Shown here one piece after another: positions 8,673 to 10,757 of a DNA stretch of 64,000 nucleotides. The notes under the pieces were generated by a model that worked only from the letters and a program-made list of their open reading frames with translations, ran no database searches and was not told the DNA's origin. Numbering within the stretch: the first letter of the stretch is position 1; the number at the start of each line of letters is the position of its first letter. Position numbers and translations under genes: made by a program. The DNA comes from Escherichia phage 92CQ. Where the stretch lies: the sequence record PV682554.1; one strand, 5' to 3'.

Positions 8673-10757
8673 GTGGCAAGGAAACCTGTCAAACAATCTT
8701 TTGAAAATGTAGATATTGAAGTTAAAGCCCAACCTGGCAAACAAACACTAGCTATGGATCTTATGCCTGAAGTAATGATTTATGGTGGTGCGGCAGGTTG
8801 TGTTTCAGCAGAAACAGAATACTTAACAAGAGACGGTTGGAAACAAATAAGTGAATATGATGGTGAGGATATTTATCAATACAATCCAAGAAATAAACGT
8901 CTTGAATTAGTTACACCATCTTTTGTAGAATATGATGCTAAAGATAACCTGTATTGTATCACAAACGGAGTAGGTGTCTTCCAAGAATTAAGTATGGAAC
9001 ATCGCTTTGTTTTCTACAAGAAGAAAAAATCCAAAAAACATTTTGAAATTCTTGTTGGGGATCTTATTGCACTACAGCAAGCAGGACACCCATTACGAGG
9101 ATATATTGAAAATCCTTTTGGTAAACGTGTTCCGTTTAACATTCAAGGTAAACCTAGCACATACCTAAAAATTCATGAGGTAATGACAAGTGATGATAAG
9201 AAATATTGCTTTGAAACTCCAAGCAGTTATGTCGTGTTTAGACGTGGCGATCACATCTTCGTTACTGGGAATAGCGGCAAAAGCCGTCTGCTACTTCTAA
9301 AAGCACTTAAATACGCATATAAAGATCCACTGTTTGGTGGTATTCTTTTCCGTAAAAATACAACAGCTTTACGTAAATCTGGTGGTTTGTTTACTGAAGC
9401 TAAAAAACTTTATCTACCATTAAAGCCTCACGTAAGGGAACAGGCTATGGAGATGGAGTTCAGAGCTACAAAAGGTGGTACACTTAAATTTGACCATCTT
9501 GAAAATGATAACGTAACTGCTGAAACTAACCATCAAGGTACGCAGTATTCGATGGTGGGTTTTGACGAACTTACACATTTTACACAATATGAAATGCTGT
9601 ATCTGTTAGGGCGTATGCGTTCTGAATCAGAAACATCTTTTATGCTGTGTACTTGTAACCCTGATGCTGACAGTTGGGTGTTAAAGTGGGTACTTCCTTA
9701 TTTGGATGAAGCTGGTTATCCACGAGAAGATATGTGTGGCAAACAGCTATACTTTCTTATTGTGCAAGATGAACCAGTATTTGCTGAAACAGCAGAAGAG
9801 TTGAAAGAAAAGTATCCTGAAAACTGTTTTATGCAAAACCCAAACACAGGTGAAACAGTGGTTATTGAACCACAAACATTTGTGTTCATTGGTGGTACTA
9901 TCTTTGATAACCCTGAACTAATAAGACTTAACCCTAAATACTTAGCTTCTTTGAAGGCTCAAACTGCCGTTAAGAGAGCACAGCTTTTAGATGGTTGTTG
10001 GTTTGCTCGTGCACAAGAAGAGAGTTTCTTTAACAGAGAATGGTTACACGTTATCAAGTTTAAAGATTTACCAAACAATCTTAAATATATGCGAGCGTGG
10101 GATAAAGCAGTATCTGTTCCAACAGAATCTTATCGTTATCCTGACTACACAACATCTGTTAAAATGGCTAAAGACTCTGATGGAAATTATTACATTTTTG
10201 GTGATTATGATTATGATGCTCACGATGAAGGTAGTAAAATTTTTGGTAGATTCAGAAGACTACCAGGTGATCGAGATAATTTAATTCTAAACCAATGTAA
10301 GATTGATGGAGATGAAGTTACAGTTGTATTGCCAAAAGATCCTTCTGGTGCTGGTTTGATTGAATATACAGAATCAGCTAAAAAACTAATTGCTGAAGGG
10401 TTTGTTGTTAAACCAGATGCTATGCCTGGTAACAAGAAAAAATTACAACGCTTTATGCCATTTAGTAGTGCTTGTCAAAATGGTTTTGTTTATATTGTAG
10501 AAGAATCTTTCCCTAACAAAGAAACTCTTGATCATTTCTATAAAGAGATGGAGTCATTTAATGGAGAAAGATCTACAGCAACATTAAAAGATGATATTCC
10601 AGATGCTGCTGCATCTTGCTTTAATACTTTGTCAAAAGAACAGATGTTTAAAGCAGTAGCAATACCTTCTGCAACAAATGCATTAACAGGGTACGGTAAG
10701 ATGGGTGGAAGATCAAGAAACTCTTTATCTTCTCCATACAGTATCAGAGGAAGATAA
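8673..10757 (+). CDS. terL: terminase large subunit, interrupted by an in-frame mini-intein
   Basis: GTG start with GGAGGAG RBS; Walker A is split as YGGAAG / SGKS around a 158-aa insert; Walker B-like VGFDELTHF; C-terminal nuclease-like domain; gene sits directly upstream of the putative portal. Confidence 0.8.
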   Translation: MARKPVKQSFENVDIEVKAQPGKQTLAMDLMPEVMIYGGAAGCVSAETEYLTRDGWKQISEYDGEDIYQYNPRNKRLELVTPSFVEYDAKDNLYCITNGVGVFQELSMEHRFVFYKKKKSKKHFEILVGDLIALQQAGHPLRGYIENPFGKRVPFNIQGKPSTYLKIHEVMTSDDKKYCFETPSSYVVFRRGDHIFVTGNSGKSRLLLLKALKYAYKDPLFGGILFRKNTTALRKSGGLFTEAKKLYLPLKPHVREQAMEMEFRATKGGTLKFDHLENDNVTAETNHQGTQYSMVGFDELTHFTQYEMLYLLGRMRSESETSFMLCTCNPDADSWVLKWVLPYLDEAGYPREDMCGKQLYFLIVQDEPVFAETAEELKEKYPENCFMQNPNTGETVVIEPQTFVFIGGTIFDNPELIRLNPKYLASLKAQTAVKRAQLLDGCWFARAQEESFFNREWLHVIKFKDLPNNLKYMRAWDKAVSVPTESYRYPDYTTSVKMAKDSDGNYYIFGDYDYDAHDEGSKIFGRFRRLPGDRDNLILNQCKIDGDEVTVVLPKDPSGAGLIEYTESAKKLIAEGFVVKPDAMPGNKKKLQRFMPFSSACQNGFVYIVEESFPNKETLDHFYKEMESFNGERSTATLKDDIPDAAASCFNTLSKEQMFKAVAIPSATNALTGYGKMGGRSRNSLSSPYSIRGR
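8799..9272 (+). mobile_element. mini-intein (158 aa, no endonuclease domain) inserted in the terminase P-loop
   Basis: Begins Cys (CVSAETEYLTRDG, block A-like), contains block B-like GVFQELSMEHRF, ends ...IFVTGN followed by Ser +1; removing it joins GGAAG to SGKS to give an intact GxxxxGKS Walker A. Confidence 0.7.

Follow-up and report, generated by a model that had tools for sequence, protein, structure and literature searches.

Inteins in the P-loop of phage terminases have been described before. In mycobacteriophages, inteins of the terminase large subunit (TerL) splice efficiently, as shown for insertions b, c and e-g, and the TerL1-a/b inteins lie in the terminase P-loop; P-loop insertions are expected to block ATPase assembly, and splicing was inferred to be needed for both ATPase activity and pentamer assembly (Kelley et al, 2016; PMC5050341). 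In the same mycobacteriophage survey, inteins of Terminase_6-type TerL were found only in the C-motif (PMC5050341). A second set of described systems is formed by the class 3 inteins, which bear a WCT triplet (e.g. MP-Be DnaB; Tori et al, 2010; PMC2807308). They favour Ser/Thr at position +1 and the ATPase P-loops of helicases and terminases, and a phage origin has been proposed for them. The class 3 split intein AceL NrdHF-1-1 (PDB 6ZGQ; Hoffmann et al, 2020; PMC7891396) carries Ala1, Ser65, His68, Met70 (block position B:12), Cys124 (F:4) and Thr144 (G:5), and it splices within minutes without a His at G:6 or F:13 (PMC7891396). Here we describe positions 8799-9272 of a 64,000-nucleotide stretch of Escherichia phage 92CQ (PV682554.1; the whole stretch is called the window), which very probably code for a mini-intein, functional and cis-splicing as we infer, within the Walker A P-loop of the single TerL of this phage.

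The window DNA is 99% identical to that of numerous Justusliebigvirus phages of Escherichia (phi92-like; Stephanstirmvirinae). Because terminase P-loop inteins are already established, this kind of element is not new; the TerL intein of phi92-like phages is a new, overlooked case, in a Terminase_6 host and at a G|SGKS site. Like the TerL1-a/b inteins, it lies inside the Walker A P-loop of a phage TerL. However, TerL1-a/b interrupt a Terminase_1-type actinophage TerL at or next to GK|T, whereas the protein studied here is of the Terminase_6 type and comes from an enterobacterial myophage, the site lies three residues upstream (G|SGKS), and the intein is of another sequence family, with a C1/C(F:4)/TGN signature.

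The sequence-only reading had placed a 158-amino-acid (aa) insert, running from Cys1 to Asn and followed by Ser+1, at 8799-9272, and these limits, read from the DNA, are exact to the base. The insert starts CVSAETEYLTRDGW and ends DHIFVTGN, between the flanks ...VMIYGGAAG and SGKSRLLLL, and is about 23% of the annotated 694-aa protein. The Walker A pattern [AG]xxxxGK[ST] does not occur in the precursor of 694 aa, whereas the joined product of 536 aa matches it once, at position 39 (GAAGSGKS), which bears out the proposal that removing the insert creates a Walker A motif that is otherwise absent. Calculated masses are 79.2 kDa for the precursor, 60.8 kDa for the spliced protein and 18.4 kDa for the insert. 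The GC content of the insert (34.8% versus 36.6% in the rest of the TerL gene) gives no sign of recent transfer. The features of the gene are listed below, with intein blocks numbered after Tori et al.

8673..10757, + strand: TerL precursor gene, a 694-aa open reading frame (ORF) with a GTG start; PF03237, phrog_979; relatives annotated likewise at the same coordinates
8673..8798, + strand: N-extein, aa 1-42, ending with the first half of the P-loop (...YGGAAG); G38, G39, A41 and G42 invariant
8799..9272, + strand: predicted mini-intein, 158 aa (474 nt), Hint fold, without homing endonuclease
8799..8801, + strand: block A, Cys1 (TGT), the putative N-terminal nucleophile, in frame with the GTG start; the same residue in 26/26 same-site inteins
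8991..9002, + strand: block B, S65-M-E-H68 (T/S-x-x-H motif); H68 invariant, S/T/C at B:7
9006-9008, + strand: block B:12, Phe70, a position that is hydrophobic across the family
9018..9167, + strand: linker, intein residues 74-123, where full-size relatives hold a LAGLIDADG endonuclease of ~170 aa
9207..9209, + strand: block F:4, Cys137 (TGC) within K-Y-C-F, the class 3 branch-point position; invariant among same-site inserts
9264..9272, + strand: block G, T156 (G:5), G157 (G:6, replacing the usual His) and N158 (G:7, the cyclising Asn)
9270-9272, + strand: N158 codon AAT, the end of the insert as read from the DNA
9273..9284, + strand: +1 Ser (AGC, 9273-9275) and the rest of Walker A, SGKS; S201, G202, K203 and S204 invariant
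9273..10757, + strand: C-extein, the rest of the ATPase domain and the RNaseH-like nuclease domain; D298, E299 and N329, P330, D331 invariant
9564-9569, + strand: Walker B, D298-E299, invariant in the alignment of 22 homologues

The host protein has what is expected of a Terminase_6 (T4-like) TerL, namely an N-terminal ATPase with Walker A (after removal of the insert) and Walker B, and a C-terminal RNaseH-like nuclease. In a Pfam scan of the ORF, the PF03237 (Terminase_6N) match (E=1e-16) starts at residue 201, directly after the insert, and the PF17289 nuclease domain is sub-threshold; phrog_979 matches the ORF at E=3e-221.

Alignment with intein-free orthologues, which the sequence-only reading had suggested as a check, showed that the insert interrupts the P-loop cleanly. 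Of the 22 homologues aligned, the eight without the insert (507-530 aa, 52-63% identity) read YGGAAGSGKSRL without a gap, with YGGAAG|SGKSRL contiguous, and the residues flanking the insert (G38 G39 A41 G42 / S201 G202 K203 S204) are invariant. Because the flanking residues are invariant in the 22 homologues and eight of these lack the insert, the match of insert and junction to the P-loop is far beyond chance. Felix O1-like terminases likewise align in one piece across the junction, and the empty target site in TerL DNA reads ...GGTGCGGCAGGT|AGCGGCAAAAGC... Among the 120 best TerL clusters, the site is empty in 59 and filled in 34, and its state is not assignable in 27 (fragments or variant motifs). 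The 34 inserts measure 146 aa (8), 158-159 aa (17), 246 aa (1) or 304-328 aa (8), and all of them start with Cys, end in [TS]GN and are followed by SGKS. Same-site relatives span 146-aa minis to 326-aa inteins with a LAGLIDADG homing endonuclease. The insert is, as expected of an intein, an in-frame insertion at a conserved host site that is absent from orthologues.

AlphaFold2, given an alignment of 26 same-site inserts, modelled the insert as a single all-beta domain with a mean predicted local distance difference test score (pLDDT) of 96.1. Foldseek with this model returned 18 PDB matches at E<=0.001, all of them inteins or other Hint domains, so that the insert has the Hint fold expected of an intein. 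When a profile of the same-site inserts was compared with PDB sequences, the only clear match was the AceL NrdHF intein (E=2.8e-10). Across the 26 inserts, no variation was seen in columns C1, T6, G13, W14, H68, D132, K135, Y136, C137, G157 and N158, and almost none in S65 and R148; the splice-junction residues of an intein (C1, S65-x-x-H68, N158, S+1) are in place. The block A-like and block B-like (SMEH, residues 65-68) motifs noted earlier are present and conserved, and the predicted lack of a homing endonuclease domain was confirmed; same-site relatives do carry one. With 158 aa and a single Hint domain, ~170 aa fewer than full-size inteins, the element has the dimensions of a mini-intein (splicing domain only, about 130-200 aa). 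The linker at residues 74-123, modelled as one short helix and strands only, is the scar of an endonuclease deletion. Bacterial intein-like (BIL) domains have no +1 nucleophile and mainly cleave, and the insert is not of this kind: its Ser+1 is invariant in the 22-homologue alignment.

Other searches with the insert were less informative. A single-sequence phmmer search against PDB sequences gave weak WW-domain-like and other matches (E >= 0.05) that were rejected as chance, a 46-aa C-terminal fragment gave noise only, and a word-indexed protein search with the insert alone retrieved only 5 close fragments. A six-frame hmmsearch of the window found no second copy of the family. An intron or a translational bypass was rejected as an explanation, since the reading frame of the insert is open and conserved, codes for a folded segment and is under purifying selection.

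All close relatives in the phage collection (132/132) carry both the extein and the insert, and their listed records hold a single TerL locus per genome. The intein is fixed in the Stephanstirmvirinae and is inherited together with the TerL gene. Against phAPEC8, which belongs to another genus, amino acid identity is 88% for the insert versus 87% for the extein, and the proportion of nonsynonymous differences (pN) is 0.083 versus 0.109; at the nucleotide level, the two genera share 81% identity in the intein and 77% in the extein. The corresponding omega values are about 0.064 and about 0.069, ratios that are only approximate because the synonymous divergence (dS) between the two genera is saturated. 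Purifying selection on the intein is as strong as on the essential extein.

The approximate nature of the omega ratios is one of several points that weigh against reading the insert as a functional mini-intein. The penultimate His, which is common but not obligatory, is lacking, as had been noticed from the sequence (the C-terminus is T156-G157-N158, with Gly157 in its place), and the usual block F Asp is absent. The intein profile search proposed as a check did not recover the element: Pfam and NCBIfam intein models gave no match to the insert. The closest characterised relative, AceL NrdHF, takes the class 3 route, and a natural variant of the family with Pro at position 1 (P0242, see below) suggests that Cys1 is perhaps not strictly required. 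Because the fold and profile-to-PDB searches were decisive, the miss by curated profiles reflects the insensitivity of these profiles and is not evidence against an intein; relatives of the insert score 30-35 bits for PF14890, under its 35.8-bit cut-off, and pass the LAGLIDADG_3 cut-off. We judged the intein very probably functional because it is retained in 132/132 relatives, is conserved like the extein, leaves the precursor without a P-loop and has a fast-splicing relative; the efficient splicing of mycobacteriophage TerL inteins is in line with this. Every element of the mini-intein reading that could be checked held (the alignment, the conserved residues, the absence of an endonuclease and of a penultimate His), and the reading is supported.

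According to this model, a 79-kDa precursor would be translated with its ATP-binding loop split (GGAAG / SGKS), and the Hint domain would then excise itself, joining Gly42 to Ser201. The products would be a 60.8-kDa active TerL with GAAGSGKS and a free 18.4-kDa intein, and the ligated junction peptide is predicted to read ...VMIYGGAAGSGK. The packaging ATPase would therefore depend on splicing. Cys1, aided by Ser65/His68 of block B, would first turn the Gly42-Cys43 peptide bond into a thioester, followed by movement of the acyl group to the hydroxyl of Ser+1, for which the invariant block F Cys137, situated between both junctions, is possibly a relay. Cyclisation of Asn158 would proceed in the absence of a penultimate His, as it does in the relative AceL NrdHF, and an O-N shift would finally give a native peptide bond.

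An exhaustive family-profile search of 1.84 billion representative proteins yielded 12,107 clusters with E<=1e-3, of which 350 reach E<=1e-30; the family is very large (>12,000 clusters) and mostly phage-borne. Residues were tallied in 175 full-length instances, including that of the window, drawn from the best 150 proteins of the ~12,100 matching clusters.

Position 1: Cys in 175/175
B:7: S, T or C in 174/175
B:10: His in 175/175
B:12: V/I/M/F/L; Trp in only 2 of 175
F:4: Cys in 173/175
G:5: Thr in 134, Ser in 28 (T/S in 162/175)
G:6: Gly in 171/175
G:7: Asn in 175/175
Position +1: Ser in 91, Cys in 54, Thr in 30 (always S, C or T; Ser/Thr in 69%)
Position -1: Gly in 117 of 175

The TGN ending is a signature of the whole intein family rather than an oddity of the phi92-like copy. 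Half of the instances (87/175) share the P-loop register G|[STC]GK[ST]; only 3/175 are <=160 aa long, most being 300-340 aa. Host proteins of the family include primase-helicase, UvrD-like helicase, RtcB, ribonucleotide reductase, glycosyltransferase and terminase, a range with which PHROG and tblastn matches to PhoH-like and RtcB proteins agree. Some members score above the Pfam LAGLIDADG_3 cut-off and near that of Intein_splicing.

Several members of the family are of interest in their own right. P0242 (residues 39-360) is a full-size member whose P-loop site reads GPFG|...|SGKSS and whose first residue is Pro, not Cys; it retains SPEH, KYCF, TGN and both LAGLIDADG motifs. Position 1 is Cys in the members P0253, P0132 and P0160, which occupy the orthologous site. 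If P0242 is not a dead copy, it represents a class-3-like configuration that arose inside the Cys1 clade. The metagenomic proteins P0130, P0155, P0185 and P0139 (1,300-2,600 aa) each contain 3 to 7 stretches matching the intein family, and some of these inteins sit back-to-back with few extein residues between them. In the related phage SD2 a DNA polymerase 'intein' has been reported; the family A DNA polymerase (PolA) of the window (48831-51410, - strand) gave no intein signal with Pfam or with the TerL-intein family profile.

Taken residue by residue, the signature is a hybrid of the class 1 nucleophile Cys1, present in the window intein and invariant in the family, and two of the three class 3 'WCT' residues. 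The window intein shares Cys at F:4 (Cys137) and Thr at G:5 (Thr156) with class 3 inteins; Trp at B:12 is replaced by Phe70, and position 1, which in class 3 is not Cys, Ser or Thr, is Cys in 175/175 instances. Because of this N-terminal Cys, the window intein is not class 3 by the operational definition. The resemblance to AceL NrdHF is close: the numbers Ser65/His68 are identical, in both inteins F:4 is Cys, G:5 is Thr, B:12 is hydrophobic but not Trp and G:6 is not His, and both have a phage-like origin, so that the pattern (Ser65, His68, Phe70, Cys137, Thr156 and Gly157 here) is shared apart from residue 1. There, AceL NrdHF has Ala1 and no N-terminal nucleophile, whereas the window intein has the invariant Cys1. 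The two also differ in that AceL NrdHF is split between two genes, with a GIY-YIG endonuclease gene between them, and resides in a ribonucleotide reductase, whereas the window intein, predicted from sequence, is contiguous and resides in a terminase. With class 3 inteins such as MP-Be DnaB, the family shares the F:4 Cys, the G:5 Thr, Ser/Thr at +1, the preference for ATPase P-loops and the proposed phage origin; in contrast, class 3 inteins have no N-terminal nucleophile and carry Trp at B:12, whereas the family has the invariant Cys1, Phe/Val/Ile at B:12 and Gly rather than His at G:6. Unlike the LAGLIDADG homing inteins (TliVMA, PI-PkoII, PI-PfuI, PI-SceI), the window copy has no endonuclease domain.

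Tentatively, the phi92 TerL intein may be assigned to a very large, previously unnamed clade that keeps both Cys1 and Cys F:4 together with Thr G:5. Its relatives include the proven class 3 intein AceL NrdHF (Ala1) and the natural Pro1 variant P0242; according to structural work (Beyer et al, 2020), a direct transition cannot take place.

A class 3 route for the window intein is possible, though we consider it doubtful. Here, Cys137 would attack the N-terminal junction, form the block F branched thioester and pass the acyl group to Ser+1, with Cys1 dispensable or only regulatory, for example as a redox-sensitive partner of Cys137. The family tally agrees with such a route in two of the three WCT residues (F:4 Cys in 173/175, G:5 Thr/Ser in 162/175) and in the 69% of instances with Ser/Thr at +1, as does the insertion site, an ATPase P-loop typical of class 3 inteins. 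Moreover, the best structural and sequence match, AceL NrdHF, is proven to be class 3 with a non-Trp B:12 and no G:6 His, and P0242 has Pro1 and still SPEH, KYCF and TGN. However, Cys1 in 175/175 instances is hard to explain if it is dispensable, since position 1 of class 3 inteins holds varied non-nucleophiles; the operational definition demands that no N-terminal Cys be present, B:12 is Phe/Val/Ile rather than Trp, and P0242 may no longer be functional. That Cys1 never varies speaks for its use, and the near-invariance of Cys F:4 speaks for a need for this residue as well. Initiation by Cys1, possibly with a Cys137 relay, is thus more likely than a pure class 3 route.

As an addition to splicing initiated by Cys1, splicing might be conditional on redox state or temperature (e.g. 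through a Cys1-Cys137 disulfide) and so time or gate packaging, which we regard as unlikely. Two invariant active-site cysteines, and the fact that an intein without endonuclease has long persisted at a functional site, are in keeping with it, as is a paper that in its title presents a class 3 DnaB intein in this role ('Mycobacterial DnaB helicase intein as oxidative stress sensor'). However, an intein is hard to delete precisely from an essential P-loop, which accounts for its retention equally well, and the E. coli cytoplasm is reducing.

It is highly improbable that the insert is a decayed intein or a cleavage-only, BIL-like Hint domain whose exteins are no longer ligated. The lost endonuclease, the missing penultimate His and block F Asp, and the absence of an intein profile match might be taken as signs of decay, but the phages are viable and widely propagated with a single TerL locus in the listed records, the insert has an omega of ~0.06 and, in contrast to BIL domains, possesses a C-terminal Asn followed by the nucleophile Ser+1, and AceL NrdHF, with the same atypical residues, splices fast. 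That the insert is instead a permanent, non-excised accessory domain of this terminase lineage, with ATP bound in some other way, is scarcely credible: fixation in 132/132 close relatives and annotation merely as part of a 'terminase large subunit' would fit it, but the insert has a Hint fold with all splice-junction residues invariant, it leaves the precursor without a Walker A motif, it splits invariant P-loop residues that orthologues have without it, and the same element occurs in unrelated proteins and with homing endonucleases.

For a functional mini-intein, the likely history would be that a LAGLIDADG homing intein invaded the conserved P-loop site, then lost its endonuclease and was from then on inherited vertically in the Stephanstirmvirinae (phi92-like and phAPEC8-like phages). 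The window copy aligns with the splicing blocks and with a short segment before the endonuclease of the 304-328-aa inteins, and ~170 aa are missing from it. A different remnant is kept in the 146-aa minis of Vibrio phages, so minimisation apparently happened at least twice. Partly deleted forms occur as well (246 aa, and 241 aa at the same site in Escherichia phage Av-05 of the Vequintavirinae), and between them the empty, full-size, partly deleted and mini forms show the usual homing-intein cycle. Because its endonuclease domain is wholly lost, the window intein is immobile by homing.

In Av-05 (KM190144; L003 2511-3641) the endonuclease of the 241-aa same-family intein is partly deleted, and the annotated TerL gene stops early, after ~377 aa, with the frame downstream full of stops; a fault in sequencing or assembly, or else a broken gene, could account for this. 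In a 7.1-kb ENA contig, a close TerL relative is present as two ORFs of 245 aa and 457 aa (P0001 and P0022), the 245-aa ORF holding the N-extein, the intein and the start of the C-extein. The split is either a frameshift or assembly error or a truly broken gene.

The TerL intein has gone unrecorded in annotation. More than 130 deposited phi92-like or phAPEC8-like genomes, therapy candidates and BASEL phages included, annotate the 694-aa TerL without noting an intein, and GenBank records of relatives name the whole ORF terminase. In the literature searched, coverage of which was incomplete, no prior report was found for terminases of phi92, phAPEC8, Justusliebigvirus, Phapecoctavirus or coliphages; according to a 2024 paper, no inteins are reported in coliphages. 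The BASEL table gives intein counts of 0 for Bas61, 1 for Bas62 and 2 for Bas60. All three phages carry the TerL insert, which was therefore uncounted for at least Bas61, presumably because an element that is fixed does not show up when close relatives are compared. The records MG065639, MG065689, MG065650 and MG065647, entered as 'Campylobacter phage' with C. jejuni as host, contain a TerL and intein identical or near-identical to those of E. coli phages, which hints at wrongly labelled hosts or at contamination.

Because TerL is in standard use as a marker for phylogenies, a mobile element inside it can distort trees. The locus would also provide an E. coli-tractable phage whose essential motor ATPase depends, as we infer, on protein splicing. 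The unusual combination of Cys1, Cys F:4 and T-G-N could help to settle the origin of class 3 splicing, and a compact 158-aa intein with Ser+1 may serve as a tool for protein engineering.

Around the TerL gene, the window holds a 16-tRNA cluster, overlapping spanin genes, and portal and major head protein genes, surroundings that fit a packaging and head module. The 16 tRNA genes (4097-6873, + strand) lie upstream of the lysis and packaging genes and include 2 tRNA-Met, 3 tRNA-Ser and 2 tRNA-Leu. Two Rz-like spanin genes (7998-8429 and 8335-8664, + strand) overlap in different frames and end 9 nt before the TerL start; their counterparts in phage JohannJBalmer are annotated i-spanin and o-spanin. 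At 651-3349 (+ strand), a ribose-phosphate pyrophosphokinase-like gene adjoins a NAPRTase-family gene, a pair that possibly forms a phage NAD+ salvage module. At 53960-57514 (- strand), two glycosyltransferase genes are followed by a 545-aa ORF, whose N-terminal 315 aa match phrog_15930 ('ribonucleotide reductase') and whose C-terminal part matches PHROGs of glycosyltransferases, with a weak match also to the TET-associated glycosyltransferase family; these genes may constitute a sugar or DNA modification module.

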